DNA of 64,000 bases, taken from Nemertoderma westbladi. Its lineage: Eukaryota > Animalia > Xenacoelomorpha. How positions within the stretch are numbered: position 1 is the stretch's first letter; each line of letters opens with the position of its first letter. Shown in pieces: positions 11,756 through 60,829 of this stretch. The notes under the pieces were generated by a model. It ran no database searches. It worked only from the letters and a program-made list of their open reading frames with translations, and was not told the origin of the DNA. Both the position numbers and the translations under genes were made by a program. The stretch covers positions 1 through 64,000 of the forward strand of contig JAUCBJ010007214.1 in the NCBI GenBank assembly GCA_032718475.1, in the 5' to 3' direction.

Positions 11756-14700
11756 TCAATCTATCACTTCATTTAATTCGTCATTATATGTGTATTTTCC
11801 GCCATGTTGATTGATAAGATGGCATAGGTTGGCTTGGTTTAACCAAGTCTGGTTCTCGGTGAGGAGATCGATTGTATTTTCCTCATCATACAGCTGATTG
11901 ATGTCGTCGTTGTCTGAGGAGTATGGTGTTCCCTCAGTTGTGGTTTCTCCCTCAATGTTTTCTTCTTCCCATTCACTCACCTGATGTATTCTCTCATTAG
12001 GGAGTCTTTCCATTAGGGTTCTACGGGAAGGTCCAGTGAAGTACCAACCTACTCTCGTTCTTTCCGCGTACGTTTGCAATGGTTGCGGTCGAGCAGGCCG
12101 TTTTTCCAATGTCTCAAGCGCTTCATGCGCATTTTGGCCGATTAATATCTGCACCCCTGTGTAATCGGTGTTGAATCTAGGTATATCATGTTGCTGGGTA
12201 AAATGGTCTTCATCCCAGTTGTAAGGTTCCACTTGGCTAGTAGCAAAGTTCTTTATAGCCACCATTTTGACCGACCTTACACTATGTTCTCCTAGTTCAT
12301 CCTGGGGAGTGGACAACGCACCCACATAGTAATCTGTAGCTACTGTGGATTTCCAAACCTGCATAAATCCGGAAAGATTCAACTTAGTTTGGAACTTGGG
12401 TTGTCCAGCAAAGATGTCTTCGGCTAGTTCTTTGTCAATGAAGATGCCTGTGCTGCCGGAGTCAAGGAGGGTGTTTACTATGAGGCGCTTCCCTAGCCCA
12501 TGAACCCTCAGTTGCACCACAGGAAATTCTCGGATACCGACGGAGGAAGTTGGCTCTTTCCAAGATGGTTGTCGGTCCGGAATAGTCAGTTGAGGATTTT
12601 CCGCTTCCGATTCAGTCTCGTACGTAAGTGCTCGATACACTGCGGTGTTTATCATATAACAGGATTCATTTTCGTCGGAGAATTTGTCCGTGTAGAATCC
12701 TTCCATATCAGAACTGTGGTCAGTGTCGTTCACATCACTGAATTGGACATGTAGTTCGGGCTCACTTACCTGACTCGTGCGGGTTCTGTCAAATTCGGTG
12801 TGCAGCAAGATGTGATGTTTCGCGCCGCACTTAGTACACCTCGCGTCTGAGTAGCAGGTTCGTCGTTGATGTCCTCGTCTGAGGCAATTATAACACAACC
12901 GCTTATCCCACATGACATCACGTCTATCCTTCAGGGATTTCTTCAAGAATTCATCACACCCACTCAAGCGATGTGGCCCGTCGCACAATACACATTTGGG
13001 TTTGATGTTACTTACTTTAACCTGTGTTGTGTTGTGCACACTGGTTCTTTCCTCAGGCTTTCTTCCATGAATTATCTTAGGAGACATAGGAGGAGTGGTT
13101 ACCTGTTCTCTCCTGTCACTGGTTCGAGACTTAGATTTACTTACGTCTTTCCTCGTTTTATTGACATAATAAGATCTTTCGGTGTCCTTACCGCTGTTCT
13201 CCTTGTATGAGGTTTGGCTTTCGCCATAATCCGTAAAACACACTGGTGTTATCTTTCTCCTAGAAACGGGTTTTTCACTCACCTTACTTTTCAGTGTCTT
13301 CTCTCTGGACTGCTTTAGGAGCTGTAATCTTACCTCTCCATTTAAGAACGACATGAGATCAGCCATGGTAGGGTCTCTTTGTTGCTGGTCCATCATATAG
13401 AGAACCTTTTTGTCCCAACGAGTACCTACTCCACCCTTTGGCAAAGTAGATGCTACGGCTCCAACAACCATAGAACTCTGGTATTCTTGAGACTTACCTA
13501 ACCAATCTAGCTGTATCTCCTGAATCTCATTGGAAAACTCTATAATCCCGCTGCTAAGAAACTTTCGGGGCGCTACTAATTTCGCATATAAATACCTAGC
13601 TAAGTTAGTCCTATTACCATACCTGATGTTTAGTGTATCCCAAACTTGTCTTAATCCATCTGGATGTCCAATAAACTTTAACGCCATTAACTTAGGAGGT
13701 CCTTCCAAGCACTCGATGAGGAATCTAAGTTTCTCTCCGTTAGATAGTACAGAGCTCTGTATGTTATCTTTATAATATTCATTAAAAGGTAACCATTTCA
13801 TCTCATCTCCATTGAACTTGACGACCTCTCCCACCTTTACCGCTTGACGGGCTTTGGTTCTAGCCATTTGACGTGTAAAACTTTCTTGAGCCATCGTATT
13901 ATTTAATATCGAGTTATCGGTATATAAATTTCTCGGATTATGATCAGATCGGTATGGGATATCATTATCAACGGATTTATAATTACCCTTAATAGGATTG
14001 ACTATAGGAGTTTCTACTTCACTAGCAGTATAGATGCGTGTAGGCTCCACACCTTGCGCATGAAATACTTCAGACCTAACGGGTTGACACATTATTACAG
14101 GGGGTGGTGGTATACCCATTCGTATATTTACTAATTTATCGCGCTCTAAAGTGATACTTTGTTGTACTTCTTGCAACTCTAACCTACTCTCTCTCACTGT
14201 TCCCTTTAACTGCTGAACAGTCCCTTCCAATTCTCGGACCTGCTGAGAAGACCTTTGTTTATGGTCTTCCAGCTGCCCGAGCAGCCGATTCATCCCCCGT
14301 TGTCCCTCATCCACCCACTCCACCGCTGAAGCGGGAGCCGCCAACATGGTAGTGGGGTGACGCGTAGGGACGACGGGAGACAAGTCATTTATGTCTTGCT
14401 CGGCGTCCAGGACTGGATGTGGTTCAGGGGCTTGTCTACTGGGCACAGGTAGTTTAGTACTGTGCAAAGGGAATTTAGAGTTAGGTTCGTGAAGTATAGG
14501 GGTCTCTATCACCGGAGTGGCTTCAATGACAGGCCTAATTATTTCAGGCTCATCTACTATAGTAGGGAGTCTGTCTACTCTAATAATTCGGTCTATAGGC
14601 TCCTGATTACTTACATCTACATTAGCTAGTTGCCTTCTCACAGCAGGAGGTAAATTAGGTAACTTCTGCCGATGTGGCGTTCTTCTACATCCGCTTGAAT

Positions 14701-15802
14701 GAGATTTATTACCTCCACCCTCGGGATCCGTTGTATCACCCTCATCGGAGGAGGTAAATACCTGTCTTCTGGGAGTTGATCGACTCAGTAGTTGCATCTG
14801 AGTAGCCGCTCTTTGTTTAGTTAAGTAATCTTGTTTCGCCTGAAGGTTCTCCAGCTCGAGTTGGTCTGTCGCTGCAGATGCTCTCTGTTCTGCTTCTGCT
14901 ACTGCCGCTGCCGCTACCGCCTTTCTTTTGGCCTCTGCTACTGCCACCTTTCTTTCAGCTTCTTCCGCTGCCGCTGCCGCTGCCGCTGCCGCCTCCACTG
15001 TTAACTTTCGGTCTTCTATTTGCCTTTTCTTTATTTTTACTTCTTGGTCCATTACGATGAGGATGCTTTCATCAAATTTAGCCTGCTCCGCAGCTAATAT
15101 TTCCGCATCTAAAGAGTCCAACACAAATTTGGCTCCCTCACTATTGGGGTGAAGTCCAGCTAGCCTTCTCCTTAGCTCTTTGTCATCTATAAATCGTTGA
15201 TAGTCCGACAGATAGATGTCAATAGCATCCTTCTTCTGAGGTTTCTCGGATGTAGCTTCGCCTTCCACCTGAGAAAAGGTAGCATCTGTTGATTCTCCGT
15301 GGGTCATGCGCTCAGTTAGCTGAGCTTTCCATTGTGTCGTTCCCTGGACTTTAAGACTCACCCGTTGGAACCAAGTCTTTACGGCCACTTGCAACGACGT
15401 GTCTTGGCTTCTCTTTGAGGCTTCCTCAAAGGCAGAAAGGATTAGTCTGATCCGTAAAATTCGTTCTCGCACTTGATAAAGCAGCTCTCCCTGCTCTTGA
15501 GGTCCTTGACGTTGTTGAAATAGGTGTTCTTCTAATCGCTCCAAAGAGCTGAAGAATCCCTGGACATATCCTGCTGCTGACCTCTTCCATACAGCTGGAT
15601 CGCGGGTTTCCCTTACTATTCCCATCCTGTATAAGTCTTCCCAGGCAGCTTCCGATAAGTTAAATGGGAGTCCGGGTCTGGGGAAGTTCCATTGCGTCTC
15701 GACAATAGACCTCAGTTCCTCCATCGTGTATCCCGCATAACTGTCCCTGGTCGATCGCTTATTTCTTGTCCAATCGGCTTGATGTTCCTCCACAGCAATC
15801 AA
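11756..15802 (-). CDS. gag: Gag (coiled coil, DUF1759-like capsid region, three Cys/His knuckles) + aspartic protease, element A
   Basis: 1348-aa ORF; KFNGDEMKWLPF...EKLRFLIECLEGPP; CVLCDGPH..C, CYNCLRRGH..C, CTKCGAKHH; protease LLDSGS. True start uncertain. Confidence 0.92.
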   Translation of the reverse strand: MIAVEEHQADWTRNKRSTRDSYAGYTMEELRSIVETQWNFPRPGLPFNLSEAAWEDLYRMGIVRETRDPAVWKRSAAGYVQGFFSSLERLEEHLFQQRQGPQEQGELLYQVRERILRIRLILSAFEEASKRSQDTSLQVAVKTWFQRVSLKVQGTTQWKAQLTERMTHGESTDATFSQVEGEATSEKPQKKDAIDIYLSDYQRFIDDKELRRRLAGLHPNSEGAKFVLDSLDAEILAAEQAKFDESILIVMDQEVKIKKRQIEDRKLTVEAAAAAAAAAEEAERKVAVAEAKRKAVAAAAVAEAEQRASAATDQLELENLQAKQDYLTKQRAATQMQLLSRSTPRRQVFTSSDEGDTTDPEGGGNKSHSSGCRRTPHRQKLPNLPPAVRRQLANVDVSNQEPIDRIIRVDRLPTIVDEPEIIRPVIEATPVIETPILHEPNSKFPLHSTKLPVPSRQAPEPHPVLDAEQDINDLSPVVPTRHPTTMLAAPASAVEWVDEGQRGMNRLLGQLEDHKQRSSQQVRELEGTVQQLKGTVRESRLELQEVQQSITLERDKLVNIRMGIPPPPVIMCQPVRSEVFHAQGVEPTRIYTASEVETPIVNPIKGNYKSVDNDIPYRSDHNPRNLYTDNSILNNTMAQESFTRQMARTKARQAVKVGEVVKFNGDEMKWLPFNEYYKDNIQSSVLSNGEKLRFLIECLEGPPKLMALKFIGHPDGLRQVWDTLNIRYGNRTNLARYLYAKLVAPRKFLSSGIIEFSNEIQEIQLDWLGKSQEYQSSMVVGAVASTLPKGGVGTRWDKKVLYMMDQQQRDPTMADLMSFLNGEVRLQLLKQSREKTLKSKVSEKPVSRRKITPVCFTDYGESQTSYKENSGKDTERSYYVNKTRKDVSKSKSRTSDRREQVTTPPMSPKIIHGRKPEERTSVHNTTQVKVSNIKPKCVLCDGPHRLSGCDEFLKKSLKDRRDVMWDKRLCYNCLRRGHQRRTCYSDARCTKCGAKHHILLHTEFDRTRTSQVSEPELHVQFSDVNDTDHSSDMEGFYTDKFSDENESCYMINTAVYRALTYETESEAENPQLTIPDRQPSWKEPTSSVGIREFPVVQLRVHGLGKRLIVNTLLDSGSTGIFIDKELAEDIFAGQPKFQTKLNLSGFMQVWKSTVATDYYVGALSTPQDELGEHSVRSVKMVAIKNFATSQVEPYNWDEDHFTQQHDIPRFNTDYTGVQILIGQNAHEALETLEKRPARPQPLQTYAERTRVGWYFTGPSRRTLMERLPNERIHQVSEWEEENIEGETTTEGTPYSSDNDDINQLYDEENTIDLLTENQTWLNQANLCHLINQHGGKYTYNDELNEVID

Positions 15803-16091
15803 TACTCTAGTGAGTACGGCCCAGGAAGAATTAGAAGTAGATCTGGATAAACCGCTTCTGCCATCCTTGCTCCGATCTTGGGTGTCAACTCTTCAGTGTC
15901 TGAACTACTAGAGTTATCGTGCCGTTGAGAAATAAGTTCTCGGCTCGGGTGCTGCTGCTGTTTAACAGCCGCTTCTTGGTCTCGCTTAGCTTGAGCCCTA
16001 GTGCCTATAATAGACCTATGGTGCTTTACTAGCCTAGGGTCTGATACTACTACTGTAGGGATGACCTTTCTTACAGTAGGAGGGGACTTGT

Positions 16092-18076
16092 ATGTTATCT
16101 TTATAATATTCATTAAAAGGTAACCATTTCATCTCATCTCCATTGAACTTGACGACCTCTCCCACCTTTACCGCTTGACGGGCTTTGGTTCTAGCCATTT
16201 GATGTGTAAAACTTTCTTGAGCCATCGTATTATTTAATATCGAGTTATCGGTATATAAATTTCTCGGATTATGATCAGATCGGTATGGGATATCATTATC
16301 AACGGATTTATAATTACCCTTAATAGGGTTGACTATAGGAGTTTCTACTTCACTAGCAGTATAGATGCGTGTAGGCTCCACACCTTGCGCATGAAATACT
16401 TCAGACCTAACGGGTTGACACATTATTACAGGGGGTGGTGGTATACCCATTCGTATATTTACTAATTTATCGCGCTCTAAAGCGATACTTTGTTGTACTT
16501 CTTGCAACTCTAACCTACTCTCTCTCACTGTTCCCTTTAACTGCTGAACAGTCCCTTCCAATTCTCAGACCTGCTGAAAAGACCTTTGATTATGGTCTTC
16601 CAGCTGCCCGAACAGCCGATTCATCCCCCGTTGTCCCTCGTCCACCCACTCCACCGCTGAAGCGGGAGCCGCCAACATGGTAGTGGGGTGACGCATAGGG
16701 ACGATGGGAGACAAGTCATTTATGTCTTGCTCGGCGTCCAGGACTGGATGTGGTTCAGGGGCTTGTCTACTGGGCACAGGTAGTTTAGTACTGTGCAAAG
16801 GGAATTTAGAATTAGGTTCGGGAAGTACAGGGGTCTCTATCACCGGAGTGGCTTCAATGACAGGCCTAATTATTTCAGGCTCATCTACTATAGTAGGGAG
16901 TCTGTCTACTCTAATAATTCGGTCTATAGGCTCCTGATTACTTACATCTACATTAGCTAGTTGCCTTCTCACCGCAGGAGGTAAATTAGGTAACTTCTGC
17001 CGGTGTGGCGTTCTTCTACGTCCGCTTGAATGAGATTTATTACCTCCACCCTTGGGATCCGTTGTATCACCCTCATCGGAAGAGGTAAATACCTGTCTTC
17101 TGGGAGTTGATCGACTCAGTAGTTGCATCTGAGTAGCAGCTCTTTGTTTAGTTAAGTAATCTTGTTTCGCCTGAAGGTTCTCTAGCTCGAGTTGGTCTGT
17201 CGCTTCAGATGCTCTCCGTTCTGCTTCTGCTACTGCCGCTGCCGCTACCGCCTTTCTTTCGGCCTCTGCTACTGCCGCCTTTCTTTCAGCTTCTTCCGCT
17301 GCCGCTGCCGCTGCCGCTGCCGCTGCCGCCTCCACTGCTAACTTTCGGTCTTCTATTTGCCTTTTCTTTATTTTTTCTTCTTGGTCCATTACGATGAGGA
17401 TGCTTTCATCAAATTTAGCCTGCTCCGCAGCTAATATTTCCGCATCTAAAGAGTCCAACACAAATTTGGCTCCCTCACTATTGGGGTGAAGTCCAGCTAG
17501 CCTTCTCCTTAGCTCTTTGTCACCTATAAATCGTTGATAGTCCGACAGATAGATGTCAATAGCATCCTTCTTCTGAGGTTTCTCGGATGTAGCTTCGCCT
17601 TCCACCTGAGAAAAGGTAGCGTCTGTTGATTCTCCGTGGGTCATGCGCTCAGTTAGCTGAACTTTCCATTGTGTCGTTCCCTGGACTTTAAGACTCACCT
17701 GTTGGAACCAAGTCTTTACGGTACTTGGTTTCTCTTTGAGGCTTCCTCAAAGGCTGAAAGGATTAGTCTGATCCGTAAAATTCGTTCTCGCACTTGATAA
17801 AGCAGCTCTCCCTGCTCTTGAGGTCCTTGACGTTGTTGAAATAGGTGTTCTTCTAATCGCTCCAAAGAGCTGAAGAATCCCTGGACATATCCTACTGCCG
17901 ACCTCTTCCATACAGCTGGATCGCGGGTGTCCCTTACTATTCCCATCCTGTATAAGTCTTCCCAGGCAGCTTCCGATAAGTTGATCGGGAGTCCGGGTCT
18001 GGGGAAGTTCCATTGCGTCTCGACAATAGACCTCAGTTCCTCCATTGTGTATCCTGCATAACTGTCCCTGGTCGAT
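16092..18076 (-). pseudogene. gag: Second, partial tandem copy of gag in element A
   Basis: ORFs 17716-18138, 16565-17698 and 16034-16561 repeat the N-terminal half of the 11756-15802 Gag; junctions at ~16092 and ~18076. Confidence 0.92.
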
Positions 18077-18800
18077 CCGCTTATACCATTACTCAGTGTA
18101 ACGTGATATATAATTAATATTAAAATACCGGTATACACTTATAGTATATATAAGTATTATTTACAGACTATGATCGGTCACAGAATACCGGTATATAATT
18201 TCAGCCTAAATTTATATAAATAAATATAATAAGCCTACCGTAAATACCGGTAATTTCAATTATTTAACAATAACTGAATTTCTGAATTTTAGGGTTACTT
18301 CCCTTCACTTTAGTACTGATATTAAGCAGTAGTTCAACTGATATTAAGACCTAATTGATGTATAACAGGCCTACTATTTTATAAATCTGTTTGAGTTGAT
18401 TTATAAATATGTATATACCCGTACAATGGGTTTTGACAATGTTTGAAATAAATGTTATTATTTCTAGATAAGGAGTCACTACACAGAAGCTGAACGCTCT
18501 CAGTGGAGTGCTACTTGCTGGACACTAATACAGATATTTATACTTTACTAAGTTACTTATCACTACAATTTACTTGCAATTACTAACGGGTTGAGATTAC
18601 AATCTCTAAATAAACAATAAACAGGTTACACGTACAATTTTTAGGGTAATTTTACAAGAAATCTACAAACCAGCCTAACAAGGAGTTAGAATTTCTGGTT
18701 CTTACAAACTGACAGGAAACTACGGTATTTGAAAACAATAAAGCAGTAGTAAGTAAGTTGCGTTGTCCAGATAAGGAAATACCACCGTCTGACTACTTAT

Positions 18801-20544: not shown

Positions 20545-21633
20545 TTAGTTGGCCTCTTGTTTATAAATCGACTTTAGCCTATATCAATTACTTAGTGTAC
20601 TGAAGTTACATCAGCCGAAGCCAGTCTGTGCGCGACCTTTCACCCACGGTTTTGGGAGACTGGATTCGGATTCCTTGAGAGTTATTGCAGTGTAGACCTA
20701 CTGTATTATTCGATTGATATTTACGATATAATCTCTGACAATATATTTACTTTCGGGGAAATATTAACAGTTCCTTTAGGACGTGGCGCTTTAAGTATAA
20801 AAACAGAGTTATGACTTATACTAATCACAACTAGATGGCCACTAAGTTTCGTAATTAGGTTTAGGAGATGCTTTATTAACCTTCACACTACTTCACACTG
20901 CTTCACACTACTTCACACTACTTCGCACTGATCTGCCGACCCTCACTGAATTTGATCATATATAAGGTGGATCGCAACTGACACATGTAGGGATTATGAA
21001 ATAGCATTTAATTCACACAAAACCAATATTATGTAAGTTGCAGTTGCTACCGGTAAACCTGTTCCTCTTACCTCAGTAATCAATAAGATTGGGGGGTTTA
21101 TGATTATTTATCAGTATTCTCCAAATATAACAGCAATATCCATTAATATAACAACAATTAATAACAGAAGTAAAATAATGCGGTGAACAGTCAGTATGTG
21201 TTACTTATGCAGGTAAAAACCGTAATGTTCAGTAGAATGACAAGTAAGTAATAATCCAGGTAGGTGAGTTAAGTTAATAGATTTACGTTCTTATAATCAG
21301 GGCCATCTGATGTTTCCTAGGCCAAAGTCTGAAACTTCTACACCGAAGCACAGAATATTCCGAGCCGGTTCTGATGCTCAGAAAAAAGTAAACAAAGACT
21401 GTAATGCATTGCGCGAGTTTCCATAGGCCTCTGTTAGACATAAAGGGAAAATCGCTCTGATTGGCTGAATAGGCAGAACAAAGAGGTTCCACGTCCACAA
21501 GAAATCAGCTGACAGATTTCGTCATCTGGGCTCTAATTCCTTCCCGTCACGCAGTTGGATAAATTTAGGGCTATTTTAGAGTATTCTGCGCATTGCGGAA
21601 AAATTACTTGTTATGTCCGCAAAAGCTTTTACA
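20545..21633 (-). repeat. 5' LTR of element A (last ~40 bp of U5 and PBS region deleted)
   Basis: Matches 1505-2593; the sequence matching 1464-1504 is absent, and the leader resumes at the equivalent of C ~45474. Confidence 0.92.
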
Positions 21634-22015: not shown

Positions 22016-23214
22016 TGTAAAAGCTTTTGCGGACATAACAAGTCATTTTTCCCAGCAATGCGCAGTGTAGGTGCTTTAGCAGACATAATCAGTCATTTTT
22101 GCCGCAATGCGCATAATACTCTAAAAGATTGGAGCTCAGATGACGAAATCTGTCAGCTGGTTTCCTGTAAACGTGGAACTTTTCTTTGTTCTGCCTAATC
22201 AGCCAATCAGAGCGATTTTCACTTTATTTCTGATAGAGGCCTATGGAAAACCACGCAATGCATTATGGTCTTTGTTTACCTTTCTGAGCCTAAGAACTGG
22301 CTTGGAATTCTTCTGTGCTTCTGTTTTGGAAGTTTCAGACTTTGGCCTAAACATCTGATGGCTTTGATTACAAGAACGTAAATCTATTATCTGCATATAC
22401 TGGAGCACTATTTCCTGAAACTCATGGAACATTACTGAACAACTTGCCTCCTCAACTATTTCCTGGCTGCATTTACCTGACGAACTGATTAAACTCAATG
22501 CATTACGTAACACATACTGACTGTTCATCGCATTATTTTACTTCTGTTATTAATTGTTATTGTATTGATGTATATTGCTGATATATTTGGAGAATACCGA
22601 TGAATAATCATAAAACCCCCAATCTTCTTGATTACTGAAGGTGAGAGGAACAGGTTACCGGTAGCAACTGCGACTTACATTATAGTGGTTTTGTGTGAAT
22701 TAAATGCTATTTCATAATCTCTACAAGTGTCAGTTGCAATCTTCCTTATATATGATCAAATTCAGTGACGGTCGGCAGATCAGTGTGCAGTAGTGTGAAG
22801 TAGTGTGAAGTCGTGTGAAGTAGTGTAACAGATAATAAATCATCTCCTAAAGAATGCGCTATTTACGAAACTCAGTAGCCATCTAGTTGTGATTAGTATA
22901 AGTTATAACTCTATTTTTATACTTAAAGCGCCATGTCCTAAAGGAACTGTTAATATTTCCCCGAAAGTAAATATATTTGTCAGGGATTATATAGTAACGA
23001 TCAATCAAATAATACAGTAGGTCTACACCGCAATAACTTTCAAAGCACCCGAATCCAGTCTCCCTTAACTGTGGGTGAATGATCGCGCACAGACTGGCTT
23101 CGGCGGATGTAACTTCAGTACATTAAATAAACGATATAGGCTAAAGTCGATTTATAAACAAGAGGACAACTAAAATTGGCAGGTTAAACTGCTAAAGGTC
23201 TAAAAGCGCAAACA
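22016..23214 (+). repeat. 5' LTR of element C
   Basis: Reverse-complement homolog of the A LTRs, with a ~50-bp tandem duplication near its start that is shared with the 3' LTR. Confidence 0.93.
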
Positions 23215-23225
23215 ATAATAGATTT
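23215..23225 (+). promoter_or_regulatory. Non-tRNA primer-binding site of C (ATAATAGATTT), complementary to LTR 22380-22390
   Basis: Directly follows the LTR CA; no TGG; perfect 11-nt complement AAATCTATTAT inside the LTR. Function inferred. Confidence 0.65.
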
Positions 23226-23329
23226 TGTTCTTTATTGCACAGTAGGCAATAAATATAGTTGTCTATTGTTCTGGTAAGAACATTAATAGTTTTAAACTCT
23301 TGATTGCACAGTAGGCAATGAATATTTTG

Positions 23330-23890
23330 TGTGACGGGATCTAAGAAGGATCCCGGTTTATCCGCGGTTATTGTATTTACGCGTCCCCACCGTGTGTGTG
23401 TGTGAAAAGAGTCTGGGAATTCTGACGTTATTGATCCTCCGATATGTATAATGCGATAGATAGTATAAAATGGATATAGTATAAAATGGTTGAAACCCAA
23501 ATGATGTAATACAGTAGTGTACAGGTAAATGGTGGTAGGCGAGGACGGTAATAGAAGTCACCGCTCTACCCTAGCTAACCGACTAACATAAATGAGATAA
23601 CTGAACCGAATACTGATACCTAATAATATATATTGCACGGTTTGGCCGTTGTTACAGTACCTAGCCGGTGCCTTCCTCCCATTGGCTAATATCCCTGTTG
23701 GCACCCTTTGGAGTGTTTCCCCTCACTCCTGCTATTCTCTCTCGGTCAGGGGTATGGCCCCTGACCCCTATTGTGTGTTTCTCCTTCCCACTCTGTTGGG
23801 GTGGCACGAGGTTGGGTAATTAAGCTCGTGCTCCCAATATTGCTTAACGGCTTACTTTGTGGGGTGTTAGCGGAATTGAATAAGCTAACA
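23330..23890 (-). repeat. 3' LTR of element B
   Basis: Near-identical to 44701-45259. Confidence 0.96.
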
Positions 23891-25915: not shown

Positions 25916-26377
25916 CAGTATCTCCTTTCCTCCTTATTCCGCCTTTCTCTTTCTGATCAGTTTTCCCGCCATTCTGAACACTCTCACTCGCTCACCTGTA
26001 AGGTGGTGCCTTACCAAGGCGCAATACAGATGAGTGATAAGTTTATGATGGTCTGTACAGTTTGAGAATGGCCCATTTCTACTTAGCTCTGAGTTATAGC
26101 CTAAATTTTCTTACTACTGTTACCATGATTTGTTCTCTTTTAGCCCTATTCTTATTTAATTTTAATTTAATTTTAATTTAATCCTACTGCTTACTGTTTA
26201 TGGATTATTCTATTTCATAATCCACATTCTGACCTACTCTGTGGGCCTGTGCAGTACAGCAGTATATGTCGTGTGGCCTACACGATTTATCCAACTGTAC
26301 TCATATGCCCCCCTCTCGCTACTAACTGCTAACTAATATCCATATTATACATATCCCTTCTACCCCTATTACTAATC

Positions 26378-27054
26378 GGTACTACGTACCCTCCTACTAA
26401 CCTCTAACTAACTAGCGGTACTACGTACCCTCTAACTCTTACTCTCTCTAACTAACTAACTAGCGGTACTACGTACCCTCTAACTCTTACTCTCTCTCTC
26501 TCTAACTAGCGGTACTACGTACCCTCTAACTACTCTAACTCTACTAACTAATGGTACTACGTACCCTCTAACTCTTACTCTCTCTCTCTCTAACTAGCGG
26601 TACTATGTACCCTCTAACTACTCTAACTCCACTAACTAGCGGTACTACGTACCCTCTAACTCTTACTCTCTCTCTCTCTAACTAGCGGTACTACGTACCC
26701 TCTAACTACTCTAACTCCACTAATGGTACTACGTACCCTCTTACTACTCTCTAACTAACGGTACTACGTACCCTCTAACTACTCCACTAACTAACGGTAC
26801 TACGTACCCTCTTACCACTCTTACTCCACTAACTAACGGTACTACGTACCCTCTTACTACTCTGACTCTACTAACCACCGGTACTACGTACCCTCTTACT
26901 ACTTCTCTAACACCTCTAACTAACTAACTCCTATCTCTCGGTACTACGTACCTCCTAACTAACTAACTGACTAACTAACTCTCACTCTCGGTACTACGTA
27001 CCTCCTAACTAACTAACTAGCTAACTAACTCTCACTCTCGGTACTACGTACCTC
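26378..27054. repeat. Minisatellite: 16 copies of the hairpin motif GGTACTACGTACC with variable CTAA/CTCT-rich spacers
   Basis: Counted by eye; one copy reads GGTACTATGTACC. Confidence 0.92.
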
Positions 27055-36022
<8,968 letters not shown>

Positions 36023-44700: not shown

Positions 44701-45259
44701 TGTGACGGGATCTAAGAAGGATCCCGGTTTATCCGCGGTTATTGTATTTACGCGTCCCCGCCATGTGTGTGTGAAAAGAGTCTGGGAATTCTGACGTTAT
44801 TGATCCTCCGATATGTATAATGCGATAGATAGTATAAAATGGATATAGTATAAAATGGTTGAAACCCAAATGATGTAATACAGTAGTGTACAGGTAAATG
44901 GTGGTAGGCGAGGATGGTAATAGAAGTCTCCGCTCTACCCTAGCTAACCGACTAACATAAATGAGATAACTGAACTGAATACTGATACCTAATAATATAT
45001 ATTGCACGGTTTGGCCATTGTTACAGTACCTAGCCGGTGCCTTCCTCCCATTGGCTAATATCCCTGTTGGCGCCCTTTGGAGTGTTTCCCCTCACTCCTG
45101 CTATTTTCTCTCGGTCAGGGGTATGGCCCCTGACCCCTATAATGTGTTTCTCCTTCCCACTCTGTTGGGGTGGCACGAGGTTGGGTAATTAACCTCGTGC
45201 TCCCAATATTGCTTAACGGATTACTTTGTGGGGTGTTAGCGGAATTGAATAAGCTAACA
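44701..45259 (-). repeat. 5' LTR of element B
   Basis: TATA-like ATATATATTA (~44993-45002) with a TCAGTT initiator-like motif ~25 nt downstream (44973-44978) on the minus strand. Confidence 0.96.
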
Positions 45260-47427
45260 TTTTGTCTATTGTTCTGGTAAGAACAATAATAGATTTTAGT
45301 TTCTTTATTGCACCGTAGGCAATAAAATCGAATGTACCGGTCGGACGGTGAACTGTAGGCCTAACTACCCGAACCGGTACTTACAGGTATCAGTATTATT
45401 TCGATTGTGAAATATTGTATATTGTAGGCTGTTAGGGGATAAGGGATTGATCACCCCTTATTCCTTTGTATGGTTTACTTATTTCTGTCAGTTTTATTTA
45501 TCTGTAAGTGTAATATTGAGCAGAAGGCGTGTAAGCCTGCTCAGATTGTACAAATAATTTGTAGGCCGGATTGTTGTCTAGCTGTTGTTAGGTCTGAAGC
45601 GATTGCAGTATGTGTGGAGTGTCTGTCCGATAAAGTACTAGTTAGGAAGGTGGGGGCATCCAGTGTTGTAAGGTAAATCCCCCCCGAAAGAATAAGTCGT
45701 ACTACTCGGTTAGAACGCCTACTAACTAACCATTTCGGAGTCTGCATATACTGTAGTTTATTTAGGCTTGACAGTAGTCTGCCAGCATTTGGTCTGTGTT
45801 TTGTTTGTATAGTCTGCACGGGTAGTGCAATATTTATTAGTCAGAGTCTATGCGAGTATTCGCAACCACCAACTCCCCAAGTTTATTCCTACAGTAATTG
45901 TGCTTGTTATACATACCGTTATAGTTGAATTAACCCCGGTACTACATCAGGGCTGCTTAGCATAGGTAAAGACTGGTGATTTTGTGCTCCGGTCACTCCA
46001 GCAGATACCGTAGTTCTTTTGACTGTTCAAGTATATTTAACTGCTGGTTATTTGTTGTATAAGTACTTGTACCTAATTTAGGGTTTAGTGTACAGTGCTT
46101 TCCGAAAGTAATTTGGTGTGTAGGCAGTATATTTGTGTTGTAAAGTGGTTAATAGGCACGTTAGCTCTGGTTGGCTGCGGTAATTAACTTCTAGGTAAGG
46201 ACACTCCGGGTACATAACGTAGTACTTATAGAGCTAAGACTATAAGTCGTCAGACGGTGGTATTTCCTTATCTGGACAACGCAATTTACTTACTACTGCT
46301 TTATTGTTTTCAAATACCGTAGATTCCTGTCAGTTTGTAAGAACCAGAAATTCTAACTCCTTGTTAGGCTGGTTTGTAGATTTCTTGTAAAATTACCCTA
46401 AAAAATTGTATGTGTAACTTTTTAGTGTTTATTTAGAGATTGTAATCTCAAACTGTAATTGTAAGTAATTTGTAGTGATAAGTAACTTAGTAAAGTAGAA
46501 TTATTCGTTTTAGTATCCAACAAGTAGCACTCCACTGAGAGCGTTCAGCTTCTGTGTAGTGACTCCTTACCCAGAAATAATAACATTTATTTCAAATATT
46601 GTCAAAAACCCATTGTACGGGTATATATATATATTATAAATCAACTCAACCGATTTATAAAATAGTAGGCCTGTTATACATCAATTAGGTCTTAATATCA
46701 GTTGGACTACTGCTTAATAACAGTAACAAGTAAAAGGGAAATAACCCTTAAAATTCAGAAATTCAGTTATTATAAAATAATTTACATTACCGGTATTTAC
46801 GGTAGGCTTATTATATATATTTATATGAATTTAGGCTGAAATTATATACCAGTATTCTGTGACTAAACCTAGTCTGTAATAATACTTATATATATACTAT
46901 AAGTGTATACCGGTATTTTAATATATTATATATATATCACATTACACTGAGTAACGGTATCGGTAATTAATCACTAGGCTTACAGTTGATACTGAATTAC
47001 TAGACTTACTTTAACTGTCGTTATAGTAGTAGGCATTCAACTGTAATATAAATCATGGCTGACACAAAACAAACACTGTCAGATAGTCTCCTAGGAAGAA
47101 CAGTCTGTGACTCAGATAGGAGTATAGAAAATCTGAGTCCAAGTCCCCTCCTACTGTAAGAAAGGTCATCCCTACAGTAGTAGTATCAGACCCTAGGCTA
47201 GTAAAGCACCATAGGTCTATCATAGGCACTAGGGCTCAAGTCAAGCGGGACCAAGAGGCAGCTGTTAAACAGCAGCAGCACCCTAACCGGGAACTTATTT
47301 CTCAGCGGCCCGATAACTCCAGTAGTTCAGACACTGTAGAGTTGACACCCGAAATCGGAGCAAGGATGGCAGAAGCAGTTTATCCGGATCCACTTCTAAT
47401 TCTTCTGGGGCCGTACTCACTAGAGTA

Positions 47428-49137
47428 TTGATCGCTGTGGAAGAACATCAAATCGATTGGGCGAGAAGTAAGCGATCGACCAGGGACAGTTATGCGGGAT
47501 ACACGATGGAGGAACTGAAGTCTATTGTCGAGACGCAATGGAACTTCCCCAGACCCGGACTCCCGTTTAACTTATCAGAAGCTGCCTGGGAGGACTTATA
47601 CAGGATGGGAGTAGTAAAGGACACTCGAGATCTAGCTGTGTGGAAGAGGTTGGTAGCAGGATATGTCCAGGGATTCTTCAGCTCTTTGGAGCGATTAGAG
47701 GAACACCTGTTTCAACAACATCAAGGGCCTCAAGAGCAGGGAGAGCTGCTTTATCAAGTGCGAGAACGAATTTTACGGATCAGACTAATCCTTTCGGCCT
47801 TTGAGGAAGCCTCGAAGAGAAGCCAAGACACGTCGTTGCAAGTGACTGTAAAGACTTGGTTCCAACGGGTGAGTCTTAAAGTCCAGGGAACGACACAATG
47901 GAAAGCTCAGCTAACCGAGCGCATGACCCACGGAGAATCAACAGATGCTACCTTTTTTCAGGTGGAAGGCGAAGTTACATCCGAGAAACCTCAGAAGAAG
48001 GATGCTATTGACATCTATCTGTCGGACTATCAACGATTTATAGGTGACAAAGAGTTAAGGAGACGGCTAGCTGGACTTCACCCTAATAGTGAGGGAGCCA
48101 AATTTGTGTTGGACTCGTTAGATGCGGAAATATTAGCCGCGGAGCAGGCTAAATTTGATGAAAGTGTCCTCATGGCAATGGATCAAGAAGAACAATTAAA
48201 GAAACGGCAAATAGAAGACCGAAGGTCAGCGGCAGCGGCAGAATCTGAGAGGAAGGCGTCAGCTGCAGAGGCTGAAAGAAAAGCGGCAGCAGCAGCAGCA
48301 GCAGCAGAATCTGAGAGGAAGGCATTAGCTGCAGAGGCTGAAAGAAAGGCGGCAGTGGCAGAAGCAGAACTGAAGGCGTCTGAAGCGACTACCCAACTAG
48401 AACTGGAGAACCTTCAGGCGAAACAAGATTACTTGAAGAAACAGAGAACAGCTACTCAGATACAGCTGCTAAGTCGATCTACTCCCAGGAGACAGGGATT
48501 TACATCCTCTGATGAAGGCGATACAACAAATCCTGAAGGTAGAGGAAATAAATCTCGTTCAAGAGGACGTAGAAGAGCGCCACACCGTCAGAAGTTACCT
48601 AATTTACCTCCGCGGTGAGAAGGCAACTGGCTAGTGTAGACTTAGGTAATCCTGAACCCACAGACCAAATTATTAGAGTAGAAAGACTCCATACTATAGT
48701 AGATGAGCCTGAAATAATTAGGCCTGTTCTCAAAGCAACTCCCTCTGTGATAGAGACACCTGTACTTCCAAAACCTAACTCTAAATTCCCTTTGCACAGT
48801 ACTAAACTACCTGTGCCCAGTTGAACAGCCCCTGAATCACTCCCGGTCCTGGACGCCGAGCAAGACATAAACGATTTGTCGCCCGTCGTCCTTACTCGTC
48901 AACCCGCTACTATGTTGGCGGCTCCCGCTTCGGCGGTGGATTGGGTAGACGAGGGACGGCGGGGGATGAATCTCCTGCTCAGGCAGCTGGAAGACCATAA
49001 TCAAAGGTCTTTTCAGCAGGTCTGAGAATTGGAAGGGACTGTTCAGCAGTTAAAGGGAACAGTAAGAGAGAGTAGGTTAGAGTTGCAAGAAGTGCAGCAG
49101 AGTATTGCTTTAGAGCGAGATAAATTAGTAATTATGA
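47428..49137 (+). pseudogene. gag: First, partial gag copy in element C
   Basis: ORFs 47428-48618 and 48615-48824 are homologous to the Gag N-terminus of A. Confidence 0.9.
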
Positions 49138-49147
49138 TAAATTAGTG

Positions 49148-52100
49148 AGGAAGCCTCAAAGAGAAACCAAGTACCGTAAAGACTTGGTTCCAACAGGTGA
49201 GTCTTAAAGTCCAGGGAACGACACAATGGAAAGTTCAGCTAACTGAGCGCATGACCCACGGAGAATCAACAGACGCTACCTTTTCTCAGGTGGAAGGCGA
49301 AGCTACATCCGAGAAACCTCAGAAGAAGGATGCTATTGACATCTATCTGTCGGACTATCAACGATTTATAGGTGACAAAGAGCTAAGGAGAAGGCTAGCT
49401 GGACTTCACCCCAATAGTGAGGGAGCCAAATTTGTGTTGGACTCTTTAGATGCGGAAATATTAGCTGCGGAGCAGGCTAAATTTGATGAAAGCATCCTCA
49501 TCGTAATGGACCAAGAAGAAAAAATAAAGAAAAGGCAAATAGAAGACCGAAAGTTAGCAGTGGAGGCGGCAGCGGCAGCGGCAGCGGCAGCGGCAGCGGA
49601 AGAAGCTGAAAGAAAGGCGGCAGTAGCAGAGGCCGAAAGAAAGGCGGTAGCGGCAGCGGCAGTAGCAGAAGCAGAACGGAGAGCATCTGAAGCGACAGAC
49701 CAACTCGAGCTAGAGAACCTTCAGGCGAAACAAGATTACTTAACTAAACAAAGAGCTGCTACTCAGATGCAACTACTGAGTCGATCAACTCCCAGAAGAC
49801 AGGTATTTACCTCTTCCGATGAGGGTGATACAACGGATCCCAAGGGTGGAGGTAATAAATCTCATTCAAGCGGACGTAGAAGAACGCCACACCGGCAGAA
49901 GTTACCTAATTTACCTCCTGCGGTGAGAAGGCAACTAGCTAATGTAGATGTAAGTAATCAGGAGCCTATAGACCGAATTATTAGAGTAGACAGACTCCCT
50001 ACTATAGTAGATGAGCCTGAAATAATTAGGCCTGTCATTGAAGCCACTCCGGTGATAGAGACCCCTGTACTTCCCGAACCTAATTCTAAATTCCCTTTGC
50101 ACAGTACTAAACTACCTGTGCCCAGTAGACAAGCCCCTGAACCACATCCAGTCCTGGACGCCGAGCAAGACATAAATGACTTGTCTCCCATCGTCCCTAT
50201 GCGTCACCCCACTACCATGTTGGCGGCTCCCGCTTCAGCGGTGGAGTGGGTGGACGAGGGACAACGGGGGATGAATCGGCTGTTCGGGCAGCTGGAAGAC
50301 CATAATCAAAGGTCTTTTCAGCAGGTCTGAGAATTGGAAGGGACTGTTCAGCAGTTAAAGGGAACAGTAAGAGAGAGTAGGTTAGAGTTGCAAGAAGTGC
50401 AGCAGAGTATTGCTTTAGAGCGAGATAAATTAGTAAATATACAAATGGGTATACCACCACCCTGTAACAATGTGTCAACCTGTTAGGTCTGAAGTATTTC
50501 ATGCGCAAGGTGTAGAGCCTACACGCATCTATACTGCTAGTGAAGTAGAAACTCCTATAGTAAACCCTATTAAGGGTAATTATTATAAACCTGTTGATAA
50601 TGATATTCCATATAGACCTGATCATAATCCGAGAAATTTATATACTGATAACTCGATATTAAATAATACGATGGCCCAAGAAAGTCTTACGCGTCAAATG
50701 GCTAGAACCGAAGCCCGTCAAGAGGTAAAGCTGGGAGAGGTCGTCAAGTTCAATGGAGATGAGATGAAATGGTTACCTTTTAATGAATATTATAAAGATA
50801 ACATACAGAACTCTGTACTATCTAACGGAGAGAAACTTAGATTCCTCATCGACTGCTTGGAAGGACCTCCCAAGTTAATGGCGTTAAAGTTTATTGGACA
50901 TCCAGATGGATTAAGACAAGTTTGGGATACACTAAACATCAGGTATGGTAATAGGACTAACATAGCTAGGTATTTGTATGTAAAATTAATGGCGCCCCGA
51001 AAGTTTCTTAGCAGGGGGATTATAGAGTTTTCCGACGAGATTCAGGAGATCTGTAGACAGTTAGACTGGTTGGGTAAGTCTCATGAATCCCAGAATTCTA
51101 TGGTTGTAGGAGCCTTAGCATCAACTTTGCCAAAGGGTGGAGTAGGTACTCGCTGGGACAAAGGTAACACCAGTGTGTTGTACAGACGATGGCGAAAGCC
51201 AAACCTCATACGAGGAAAACAGCGGTAAAGACACCGAAAGATCTTATTATGTCAATAAAACTAGGAAAGACGTAAGTAAATCTAAGTCTCGAAGCAGTGA
51301 CACGAGAGAACAGGTAACAACTCCTCCTACGTCTCCTAAGAGATTTCATGGAAGAAAGCCCGAGGAAAGAACCAGTATGCACCACACAGCACAGGTTAAA
51401 GTAAGTAACATCAAGCCCAAATGTGTATTGTGCGACGGGCCACATCGCTTGAGTGGGTGTGATGAATTCTTGAAGAAATCACTGAAGGATAGACATGATG
51501 TCATGTGGGATAAGCAGTTGTGTTATAATTGCCTCAGACGAGGACACCAATGGTGGACCTGTTACTCAGATGCTAGGTGTGCTAAGTGCGGCGCGAAGCA
51601 TCATATCTTGCTGCACACAGAATTTGACGGAACCCGCACGAGTCAGGTAGTGAGCCCGAACTACATGTCCAATTCGGTGATATGAACGACACTGACCACA
51701 GCTCTGAGATGGAAGGATTCTACACGGACGAATTCTCCGACGAAAACGAATCCTGTTATATGATAAACACCGCAGTGTATCGAGCAATTACGTATGAGAC
51801 TGAAACGAGAGAAGAAGATCCTCAACTGACTAATCCGGACCAGCAACCATCTTGGAAAGTGCCGACTTCCAACGTCGGAATCCGGGAATTCCCTGTGGTG
51901 CAGCTGAGAGTCCACGGACTAGAGAAAAGTTTGATAGTAAACGCCCTCCTTGACTCCGGCAGCACAGGTACATTCATCGACAAAGAACTAGCCGAAGACT
52001 TCTTTGCTGGACAACCCAAGTTCCAAACTAAGTTGAACCTTTCAGGAATTATGCAGGTTTGGAAATCCACACTAGCTACCGATTACTATGTGGGTGCGTT

Positions 52101-54369: not shown

Positions 54370-54765
54370 TTAGGTGGACCCGACTTCCTAAGTAAAGAAG
54401 AGGATGAATGGCCTCCTCATCTCACCACAGCTGAGATTAGACAAGCCAAGGGAGTGGAGAAAGTCAAACCTAAAACCCGGACGAGTAAATCAAAGTTATT
54501 TAAACCCGTGATAGATCTGTCTGTACTACACATTTCCAGGGACAATGCTGTGGATCTAAACCCCCCCCCCCCCCCACAACGAACAAATCTGTTATAGACA
54601 TCAGAGAAAGAGACTGGAAATCTGGAACACCAGACATCTCGCAGGGACTCTCACCTCTCCTGCAGAGAGCGATAAATCATTATAGCTCCTGGAATCGGCT
54701 TTGTAAGGCTGTCGTGTATCTGAAAAGATGCTTCCACCATCACTATTCCAGGACAAAGATTGCTA

Positions 54766-57569
54766 CACTGAAAAAATTGTTCGGCGGTTCTTTTTTTAAC
54801 CTCTGGTATAAAATTTTCAACCGATGGTTGCTCTTTTAAAACCGCTGGTTACAAATTGGCATATGCTAAAACGGTGGTTTAAATTTTCCCAAAGTGCAGT
54901 GTTACATTGAAACGGTGGTTTAAATTTTCCCAAACTGCAGTGTTACATTGAAACGGTGGTTTAAATTTTCCCAAACTGCAGTGTTACATTGAAACGGTGG
55001 TTTTCTGGATTGTAGTTGCTATCATAAAACAGAAACAGTGTTTGACTTAGGAATAAACGGCGGTTCATATTATTTGATACAAAGTAACCGGTGGTTTAAA
55101 ACTTACATTAATCGATTGGTTGAAAAATACATATAACCGTTGATTTAAAACACAGTAAACGGTGGTTGAAAACTTAGAATAACCGGTGGTTTACAAAAAT
55201 TCAAATCACAGTTTGTTTACAACACAGTAAACGGTAGTGATCAATAACATAATATCCAATCATGTAAACAATCTTAATACGTTTGTTAAGTACGTTTTTA
55301 TGTAACATTTATCAGGTAAATATTTAACAATTGTTTAACATGATTTACATGTTTTACATTATTTATAACATAAATCAAGCATTCCCTTATATTTGTTGAA
55401 TGCTACTATATCATGTTGAACAAAAATGTGTTATAAATTACAATGTATGTCTTAGGGATGTTTGAATAAACCGCCATAAGTTGACCGCTAATTCTGCAAT
55501 TTGTTCATACTGTCATAGGCCTATCATAATTCAGTCATTTTTTGTGAAAGTGCCATTGCCATCCTGCGCTGTCCTGCAATCGCAGAATCGGTACCGGTAC
55601 AATCCTGAAATTTGATTATAGTGATGCAGTGTATCACTGGCACTGGTACAGTAGTGGTACCGGTTGCCGGTAGTACAGAACAGTACAGCAGTAGTACAGT
55701 ACTGCTGTAGTAGGGCTGTGTAGGGTAGTGTACTCTTTTTGTTTTGTAGTTGTACCGGTACTATTTCTGTATTTCTTGGATTGTAGCTATATCTGTGTGT
55801 ATATTACTGTATTATGAGTACGGTACCTGAGTACGGTATATTATATTTCTGTATTTGGTTTATTATTTTGGTTTGGTTAGGCCTATGCAGGAATGCAGCT
55901 ATGCGGTTGGTTAGTTCTGTAGTTCAGTAGTTGGCCAGGCCTTAACCCTAATTAAAACTGTCACATAGGCCAGTAGGCGTAACCGGGTGGTGAATTTTTA
56001 GGGGGGTCAGGGGTGGAAATTCTCTGCTACACCAGTACCTACCGGTGTACCTACCAGTATGCCGAGACCCGACACAACTTTAGGAGTAGGAAGGCCAATA
56101 AACGAAAGTTGTCCTCAACCACCTGTCAACACCATCAACAGCTGCTAACGATAAAGCCGGTACTGAGGTACAGTCTGACAGTTGCCTAGTAAAAGTTTAG
56201 ATCAGGTTTCAGACATATCGCCATTGGATATAGCTAAAGTTAATCTCAAGGAGCCAGATGCAAAAGTGACCAAACGGAAAGTAATAAATCGTCCCCCTTT
56301 GCTCTGCTTATCGGATGATGATAATATAGCTGAGGGATTGGAGATAGTCCCACATCCACGAGGTGCAAAGAGGAAAGTAAGCATTTTTGATTCTTCTTCT
56401 GATGATGAATCCTCGGAATTATCTTATGGATCTAAATCGTCTAGTACCTGCAGTGGTCCATCTGATAGTCGAGATGAGGGTGACTATGTTGGTGAGTTGG
56501 TTTGGGCGCGGCAACGTATAACAAAACCATTCTGGCCTGCCCGAACTGAAAGAGCTCCAGAGGGTTCCGCAATGCCCAAGCCAAAGCATCCAGGGGACAA
56601 CTTCAAGTGGATTTACTTCTTTGGTTCTAACAATTTCTCATGGATTAAAGACACTGCGGAATACATTGTTCCATATTTTGAAAATCGCGAGCAGCATGGG
56701 AAAAGGAAGGCTTCGTCTACAGTCAAATTTCTAAAGGGAATTGATGACATTGATGAAGAATATACCGCAATGTCTGTTAGGAAAAATGATTGTCCATATC
56801 AGGAAGAGTGAATGGTTCAATACATTATCATTTAAGATTTAGGAAACTGTAAATTCATTTATTCAATAATTTGATTATCATTTATATTTGATAAACATAT
56901 TTGATATTTGATATTATATTTGATATTCAATAAACCATTTATTTGAAATCTAAAACACCGACTTGATCCTCATTTGAAACCTGAAACACCGGTTGATCTT
57001 AAATTAACCACAGGTTAAACCATGTATTTGAAACCCGAAACACCGGTTGATCTTAAATTAACCACAGGTTAAACCATATATTTGAAACCTGAAACAACGG
57101 TTGATCCACATTAAACGCAGGTTTAATCATTTATTTTGAAAAAAACACCGGTTGATCTTAAATTAACCACAGGTTAAACCATATATTTGAAACCCGAAAC
57201 ACCGGTTGATCTTAAATTAACCACAGGTTAAACCATATATTTGAAACCTGAAACAACGGTTGATCCACATTAAACGCAGGTTTATCCATTTATTTTGAAA
57301 CCTAAACACCTGTTTACCTTAAATTAACCACAGGTTAAATCATTTATTTGAAACCTGAAACACCATTGAACTTAAGCACAACCACTGGTTGTTATACGAA
57401 AAACAACCTGAGGTTTAATTTATAAAATTTAACCACAGGTTATCTTTGAATCGATAAACCTCTGGTTCCTCGAATTAACCGCAGGTCAAAAATTCACCAA
57501 ATTAACCTGGGGTTATTTTCGAAAACCAGAGGTTTTTTAAAAAAGAACCACTGGTACGATTTTTCAGTG
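54766..57569. mobile_element. Non-autonomous CMC/EnSpm-like DNA transposon (CACTG...CAGTG, TA TSD) inserted in pol of C
   Basis: Imperfect TIRs CACTGAAAAA..GGTTCTTTTTT..AACCTCTGGT; TA duplicated at 54764-65 and 57570-71 (single TA in A at ~9642); dense subterminal repeats at 54800-55240 and 56940-57540; no transposase seen. Confidence 0.85.
56182..56811 (+). CDS. PWWP-domain protein (HDGF/LEDGF-type fold) carried by the DNA transposon
   Basis: GELVWARQRITKPFWPAR...WIYFFGSNNFSWI...IVPYFENREQHGK...KFLKGIDDI follows the PWWP pattern; Ser/Asp-rich N-terminal part; AATAAA at 56929. Start probably frameshifted. Confidence 0.85.
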   Translation: MPSKSLDQVSDISPLDIAKVNLKEPDAKVTKRKVINRPPLLCLSDDDNIAEGLEIVPHPRGAKRKVSIFDSSSDDESSELSYGSKSSSTCSGPSDSRDEGDYVGELVWARQRITKPFWPARTERAPEGSAMPKPKHPGDNFKWIYFFGSNNFSWIKDTAEYIVPYFENREQHGKRKASSTVKFLKGIDDIDEEYTAMSVRKNDCPYQEE

Positions 57570-57633
57570 TAGTGATACCGCTTCACTGACATCCGAGCAG
57601 GTCCATGCTATTAAAGATCTTCCCACATACAGA

Positions 57634-60333: not shown

Positions 60334-60725
60334 TGTAAAATCTTTTGTGGACATAACAAGTCATTTTTCCCAGCAATGCGCAGTGTAGGTGCTTTAGCGG
60401 ACATAATCAGTCATTTTTGCCGCAATGCGCATAATACTCTAAAAGATTTGAGCTCAGATGATGAAATCTGTCAGCTGGTTTCCTGTAAACGTGGAACTTT
60501 TCTTTGTTCTGCCTAATCAGCCAATCAGAGCGATTTTCACTTTATTTCTGATAGAGGCCTATGGAAAACCGCGCAATGCATTACGGTCTTTGTTTACCTT
60601 TCAGACGCTTACGGCGGATGTAACTTCAGTACATTAAATAATCGATATAGGCTAAAGTCGATTTATAAACAAGAGGACAACTAAAATTGGCAGGTTAAAC
60701 TGCTAAAGGTCTAAAAGCGTGAACA
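60334..60725 (+). repeat. 3' LTR of element C with ~800-bp internal deletion
   Basis: Matches 22016-~22283, then jumps at ~60603 to ~23090-23214. Confidence 0.92.
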
Positions 60726-60829
60726 AATGTTGTGCCGACAGTGTTGGCATTACGTTATACTGACAGTGTCGGCGTTGCATTACCCCCCCCCCCCCCCCCT
60801 CTCAAAATGATCGAACAAATGTTTCCAAG

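Follow-up and report, generated by a model that had tools for sequence, protein, structure and literature searches.

The question raised by this locus is which primer starts reverse transcription in two BEL/Pao retrotransposons whose 5′ LTRs are followed, from the very first base, by a sequence complementary to their own LTR. A passage of the ICTV description presents the Belpaoviridae as tRNA-primed, with an 18-nt site that pairs with the 3′ end of a host tRNA, and part of the account of Achilles, a BEL/Pao element, gives it a tRNA-Tyr primer site. In the window (the whole stretch of 64,000 nt of animal DNA analysed here), three BEL/Pao LTR retrotransposons, A, B and C, were delimited by self-BLAST and by reading of their ends, and all their LTRs carry TG..CA ends. 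Element A (1464-21633, minus strand) is bordered on both sides by a perfect 5-bp TSD (CCTAT) and belongs to the same family as C, the LTRs of the two being 82% identical by self-BLAST. Its 3′ LTR lies at 1464-2593 and its 5′ LTR at about 20545-21633 (both minus strand, from self-BLAST and end reading), and, compared with C, the inner end of its 5′ LTR is absent, as are the primer site and some 330 nt of leader.

Element C runs on the plus strand from a 5′ LTR of 1199 bp (22016-23214), which starts with TGTAAAAG, ends with GCAAACA and matches by self-BLAST both 60334-60726 and, reversed, the LTRs of A. The stretch at 60334-60726 is the plus-strand 3′ LTR of C, from which an internal deletion of ~800 bp has removed the 11-mer discussed below, and the TSD of C is imperfect (AATAC versus AATGT). 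The plus-strand leader of C is broken off after its first part (23213-23329) by the insertion of B and resumes in a second part at 45260-45350. Element B (23330-45259, minus strand) is thus nested in the C leader, with the TSD TTTTG found at 45260-45264, and its minus-strand LTRs (3′ at 23330-23890, 5′ at 44701-45259) are 97.5% identical to each other and unrelated to the A/C LTRs. Some features of size and content stand apart. At 20.2 kb for A and, with B left out, about 16.8 kb for C, both lengths far exceed the 4-10 kb stated for the family; an internal tandem duplication of ~2 kb occupies the gag region of both (13758-18084 and 47140-51162). In C, ~2.8 kb at 54760-57570 that are absent from A include an ORF (56179-56811) encoding a PWWP domain (E = 4e-10) as well as short tandem repeats (56972-57390), and B contains ~9.6 kb of pure (AACT)n at 26360-36021.

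The Pfam domains Peptidase_A17 (E = 1e-35 to 2e-39), DUF1759 and DUF5641 were detected in A, B and C, and Integrase_H2C2 in B only among the three. The pol products of B and C share 31% identity over 226 residues. No close relative of the B pol was found among 5.8 billion proteins, in which the best matches are 32-34% identical, and its named homologues are of BEL/Pao type and come from fishes, a brittle star, a nemertean and insects. On these Pfam domains, the homologues, the LTR ends and the short TSD, A, B and C are assigned to BEL/Pao (Belpaoviridae). Membership in the Tf1/sushi group (Ty3/gypsy chromoviruses) was considered and rejected, as the Pfam domains are those of BEL/Pao and none is of gypsy type.

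In C, the candidate primer-binding site (23215-23232, plus strand) begins at the first base after the CA of the LTR and reads ATAATAGATTTTGTTCTT, that is, ATAATAGATTT followed by the extension TGTTCTT. Its first 11 bases (23215-23225) are the exact reverse complement of AAATCTATTAT, located on the same strand within the LTR at 22380-22390 and putatively the 3′ end of a self-primer. The pairing extends back to 22372 (22372-22390 reads AAGAACGTAAATCTATTAT), AAGAACG facing TGTTCTT in seven pairs, one of them G-U, with U22379 bulged out as a single nucleotide. The same arrangement is found on the minus strand in B, where the site GTAATAGAAGT (44700-44690) starts at the first base after the CA of the 5′ LTR (45259-44701) and its complement ACTTCTATTAC lies at 44927-44917, positions 333-343 of the 559 in the LTR, and is present again in the 3′ LTR (23548-23558). 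The pairing partners are 227 nt apart in B and 835 nt apart in C. Both LTR copies of A carry AAATCTATTAA (2243-2233 and 21284-21274, minus strand), which differs from the 11-mer of C in its last base.

The two primer sites have 8 of 11 positions and a TAATAGA core in common, and each of the three differences is compensated in the element's own LTR; indeed, the match of a primer site is 11 nt long with the LTR of its own family and 4-6 nt long with the others. The relation that characterises Tf1, a primer site able to pair with LTR-derived RNA of the same element, is therefore found in B and C with 11 of 11 pairs, and no TGG-type sequence of the kind that a tRNA primer site as described by ICTV would show follows either LTR. 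These observations bear out what the first-pass annotation had described: an LTR-complementary 11-mer directly after the CA at 23214, 11 perfect pairs with more past a bulge and G-U (seven by our count), dissimilar B and C LTRs whose primer sites share TAATAGA while each differing flank matches its own LTR alone, and the A 11-mer at 2243-2233. TGG-type sites, which it had set against its own reading, were searched for in the first 50 nt of both leaders and found in neither, and no tRNA gene or Rfam family was detected within the window. Read by eye, the C leader is made of three tandem units of ~68 nt, each with a primer-site-like motif at its start and an ATTGC..GCAAT hairpin; unit 2 is interrupted by B, and the third unit, after B, contains a second exact copy of ATAATAGATTT (45286-45296).

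The RNA of each element was folded from just upstream of the 11-mer through just past the primer site. The B fold (261 nt, -56.4 kcal/mol) has a z of -2.76, and 1 of 200 shuffles was as good; the C fold covers 875 nt and reaches -198.2 kcal/mol. In the MFE and the centroid folds of both elements, the predicted closing helix is the duplex between the 11-mer and the primer site, lengthened in B by 6 pairs past a 3-nt bulge and in C by 7 (one G-U) past a 1-nt bulge.

Self-priming of reverse transcription in the manner of Tf1 is in our opinion the best explanation for B and C, and we consider it probable from the layout of the two elements. The RNA of the element would fold back, or pair with a second RNA copy, at the 11-mer and the primer site. 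The 11-mer of the LTR would lie in R and so belong to the 5′ end of the transcript; the element's own RNase H is predicted to cut the RNA after the 11-mer, which would leave the 3′ end of a primer, and extension from this 3′-OH would copy U5 and R in minus-strand DNA synthesis. The primer site would in this way be rewritten from the primer at every cycle, as the Tf1 literature would lead one to expect. Such copying would keep the two sides in agreement, so that under self-priming a change on one side of the pairing should be matched on the other, and pairing at the first base after the LTR fits the requirement for a minus-strand primer site. Upstream of the B 11-mer there is a TATA-like box at ~75 nt and an initiator-like motif, TCAGTT, at ~47 nt, and TATA-like boxes stand 35-75 nt upstream of the LTR-side motif in several of the metagenome loci described below. 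Because the start predicted from these motifs is upstream, the B 11-mer may sit ~47 nt inside the RNA, unlike in Tf1, and the primer may come from within the 5′ leader instead of being nucleotides 1-11 of the RNA.

Other copies in the same species were surveyed in six sequencing runs (DNA contigs or contigs of unrecorded kind, ~100-150 nt long), and the A/C family is highly repeated, with thousands of short contigs in the runs. Among contigs mapped on 23160-23300, 23215 A>T accounts for 29-33% of the depth (X1, 35 contigs, 13,885/47,217; X2, 35 contigs, 31,380/95,785; X3, 27 contigs, 10,596/31,786), and the other primer-site variants are 23222 A>T (24-31%) and 23219 T>C (about 5-8%). The T at 23215 is the letter predicted for A-type copies (TTAATAGATTT), in contigs too short to link the site with an LTR. 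It may also stem from internal leader units, since the share of 23222 A>T is similar and the second leader unit of C reads ATTAATAGTTTT after GAACA. The primer site and the LTR 11-mer may vary independently among copies, as the short contigs leave the variants unlinked. Note that the leader units of C differ among other genomic copies, and that the stretch right after the LTR 11-mer (22391-22507) is replaced by other sequence in many copies, with joints starting at 22389-22393. The depth is 0 at 22412-22455 in the DNA contigs, and A and C also differ across 22391-22507. Summed depth over the C LTR is uneven in the DNA contig sets, its right half (22588-23203) reaching 5-10 times the value of the left, so the two halves may circulate separately.

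Relatives of these elements were sought in larger collections. A search of viral_contigs with a DNA pattern gave 0 matches, and a search of the same collection with a 19-sequence protein profile matched 46 stretches, 0 of which were relatives. Of 582 candidate stretches in metagenome contigs, 549 encode relatives, and 79 loci were kept. A direct-repeat pair is present in 25 of the 79, with both LTR 3′ ends inside the contig in 10; the other 15 repeat pairs were terminal overlaps or cut by contig ends and were left out. The ten loci form, with B and C, a set of 12 elements whose LTR ends are set by two copies. In 5 of the 12 (B, C, L004, L005 and L017), an uninterrupted complement of 10-12 nt starts 0-4 nt past the end of the LTR (shuffle p of 0.001-0.017 per element); in three others (L008, L036 and L037), the complement forms only when a GT..AG intron of the LTR is bridged. 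Among the remainder, L045 is the one element of the 12 with a TGG-type site, which we take to be tRNA-like; in L022 the complement is confined to the mapped start of the 3′ copy, and no split (intron-spanning) match was found; and no complement was found in L052 and L070.

Ten more loci in which two LTR copies are not available (L001, L009, L013, L016, L023, L026, L030, L056, L057 and L062) show pairs of 11-21 nt beside CA/TA, with letters that differ per locus, although these were picked by eye from noisy lists. Their partners are 63-267 nt apart, and the primer site lies 3.2-4.5 kb upstream of the pol match in nine of them and ~6.1 kb upstream in L016. An unbiased count over 75 loci (4 duplicates dropped) gave 13 pairs of at least 11 nt in the expected zone against 6.8 expected from the rest (P = 0.02) and a block-shuffle mean of 3.75, a modest enrichment for which the ‘outside’ control is imperfect, as the LTR and primer site fall downstream of pol in circularly permuted contigs. 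By eye count, 19 elements have differing primer-site sequences, each matched in its own LTR; 13 of the 19 LTR-side motifs end in AC, hence primer sites starting with GT, and a C follows in the LTR after 8 of the 18 motifs listed. The AC ending and the following C may represent a conserved cut-site context.

Intron-spanning complements were searched in the loci lacking a contiguous one, with 300 shuffled junction sequences for each. As an example, in L037 (7046-7224) a 168-nt intron separates AATCG|GTAAGC from TTTTAG|TTTGAC, and the joint is the exact complement of GTCAAACGATT (9/300 shuffles). In L008 (6286-6426), a 123-nt intron between AATTTG|GTAAGC and ACAG|AAAACT yields a 12-nt match (2/300), and in L036 (6920-7116), with AGAG|GT... 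and TTTCAG|TTTTTAC, an intron of 175 or 186 nt yields an 11-nt match (8/300). In addition, the LTR of L030 (1-60, 7040-7206) reads GAGAGGACAATCGTTTGACGGTTTTGG, which is that of L037 minus exactly the intron; this relation was read by eye, and MAFFT left the first exon of L030 unplaced against L037. The 11-mers of B and C in the window are contiguous. A splice reading of the bulged GT in C and of the deletion in its 3′ LTR was tried and rejected, as no GT..AG fits.

Three other explanations must be weighed against self-priming. That the matches are chance inverted repeats is suggested by the A/T-richness of the sequences and by a background of 0.13-0.4 pairs of at least 10 nt per kb across the regions of the loci that encode pol. 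In 20,000 first-order Markov shuffles per LTR with the offset fixed at 0, however, an 11-nt match arose at frequencies of 0.00145 for C and 0.00025 for B, in line with the earlier expectation that chance was unlikely, and at 0.01 (C) and 0.001 (B) when 11 offsets were allowed. The joint probability for B and C at the fixed offset is about 4e-7 and the layout recurs in other elements, and we give chance almost no credence. A host small RNA carrying UCUAUUA, such as a tRNA fragment, might prime both B and C, the LTR copies being incidental; the TAATAGA core and the 8 of 11 common positions would agree with this, and half-tRNA primers are known for copia-type elements, according to part of a survey (PMC6317226). 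Yet one shared RNA cannot match both B and C, because the three positions at which they differ are each compensated in their own LTR, which speaks against the possibility that the first-pass annotation had itself raised. The own-LTR matches of the 19 elements counted by eye and the lack of any tRNA or Rfam match within the window likewise oppose a host RNA, which appears very improbable.

The pairing could also be a long-range RNA structure for packaging, dimerisation, translation control or strand transfer, with a different primer. Retroviral leaders do use long-range pairings, the helix closes the entire R-U5 region in the folds of B and C, and the 835 nt in C are long for a fold-back primer. 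Against this, the pairing begins in both elements at the first base after CA, the spot fixed by the end of a minus-strand primer, their leaders offer no alternative TGG site in the first 50 nt, and the same placement recurs in other elements. We regard a purely structural role as unlikely, if less so than a host RNA. Some observations count against self-priming itself, namely the 835-nt loop of C, the deleted primer site of A, the C 3′ LTR that lacks the 11-mer, the exceptions L052, L070, L045 and L022, and the modest locus-wide enrichment. Self-priming may also reach beyond the window: a broad and old animal BEL/Pao clade could be primed by an internal piece of its own 5′ leader, cut after a conserved ..AC, with some members needing splicing of an LTR intron and the 11-mers of B and C being the intron-less state. 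We propose this wider reading tentatively, at slightly less than even confidence.

The comparison with known systems places B and C between two groups. As reported in passages of the Tf1 work (PMC7175516), the initial 11 bases in the Tf1 RNA anneal to the primer site and RNase H cleaves between bases 11 and 12, and part of another study (PMC4600332) reads Tj1 as self-primed like Tf1. Like Tf1 and Tf2 of S. pombe and Tj1 of S. japonicus, B and C have no tRNA site and a primer site complementary to their own 5′ LTR/R, and like Tf1 they show an 11-nt duplex. Unlike these three Ty3/gypsy elements, they are BEL/Pao; also unlike Tf1, the B 11-mer is predicted from sequence motifs to be internal to the RNA, and the helix continues past a bulge. 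With the tRNA-primed BEL/Pao elements they share TG..CA LTRs, a 5-bp TSD and a gag-pol in which Peptidase_A17, DUF1759 and DUF5641 occur, but they lack the TGG-type site. The best reading of this comparison is a mechanism resembling that of Tf1 in elements that stand outside its group.

Self-priming has been predicted for the Tf1/sushi and Tcn1 (gypsy) and TAR/Houba (copia) groups, in the relevant part of PMC6317226, and several fungal gypsy elements are listed as self-primed in part of PMC6934838. Such predictions, like ours, were made from the complementarity of primer site and LTR alone, and none concerns BEL/Pao. A full-text search, covering papers outside subscription, found no link between BEL/Pao and self-priming; the BEL/Pao survey of de la Chaux and Wagner makes no mention of primer sites, and the Sinbad paper uses ‘primer’ for PCR only. 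Against the papers searched, what is new is the self-priming signature in BEL/Pao, self-priming being already known in gypsy and predicted in copia.

The window provides a clean natural experiment, with two diverged families, B nested in C, in which the paired segments have changed in step. If self-priming holds for a large part of the family, it would contradict the reference description of the Belpaoviridae, in which the primer is a host tRNA. Annotation tools that seek tRNA sites would then miss such BEL/Pao elements or set their boundaries wrongly, and host defences based on tRNA fragments would not affect them. Self-priming would, moreover, have arisen or persisted in a second LTR superfamily, which is relevant to the long-standing idea of self-priming in the earliest LTR elements.
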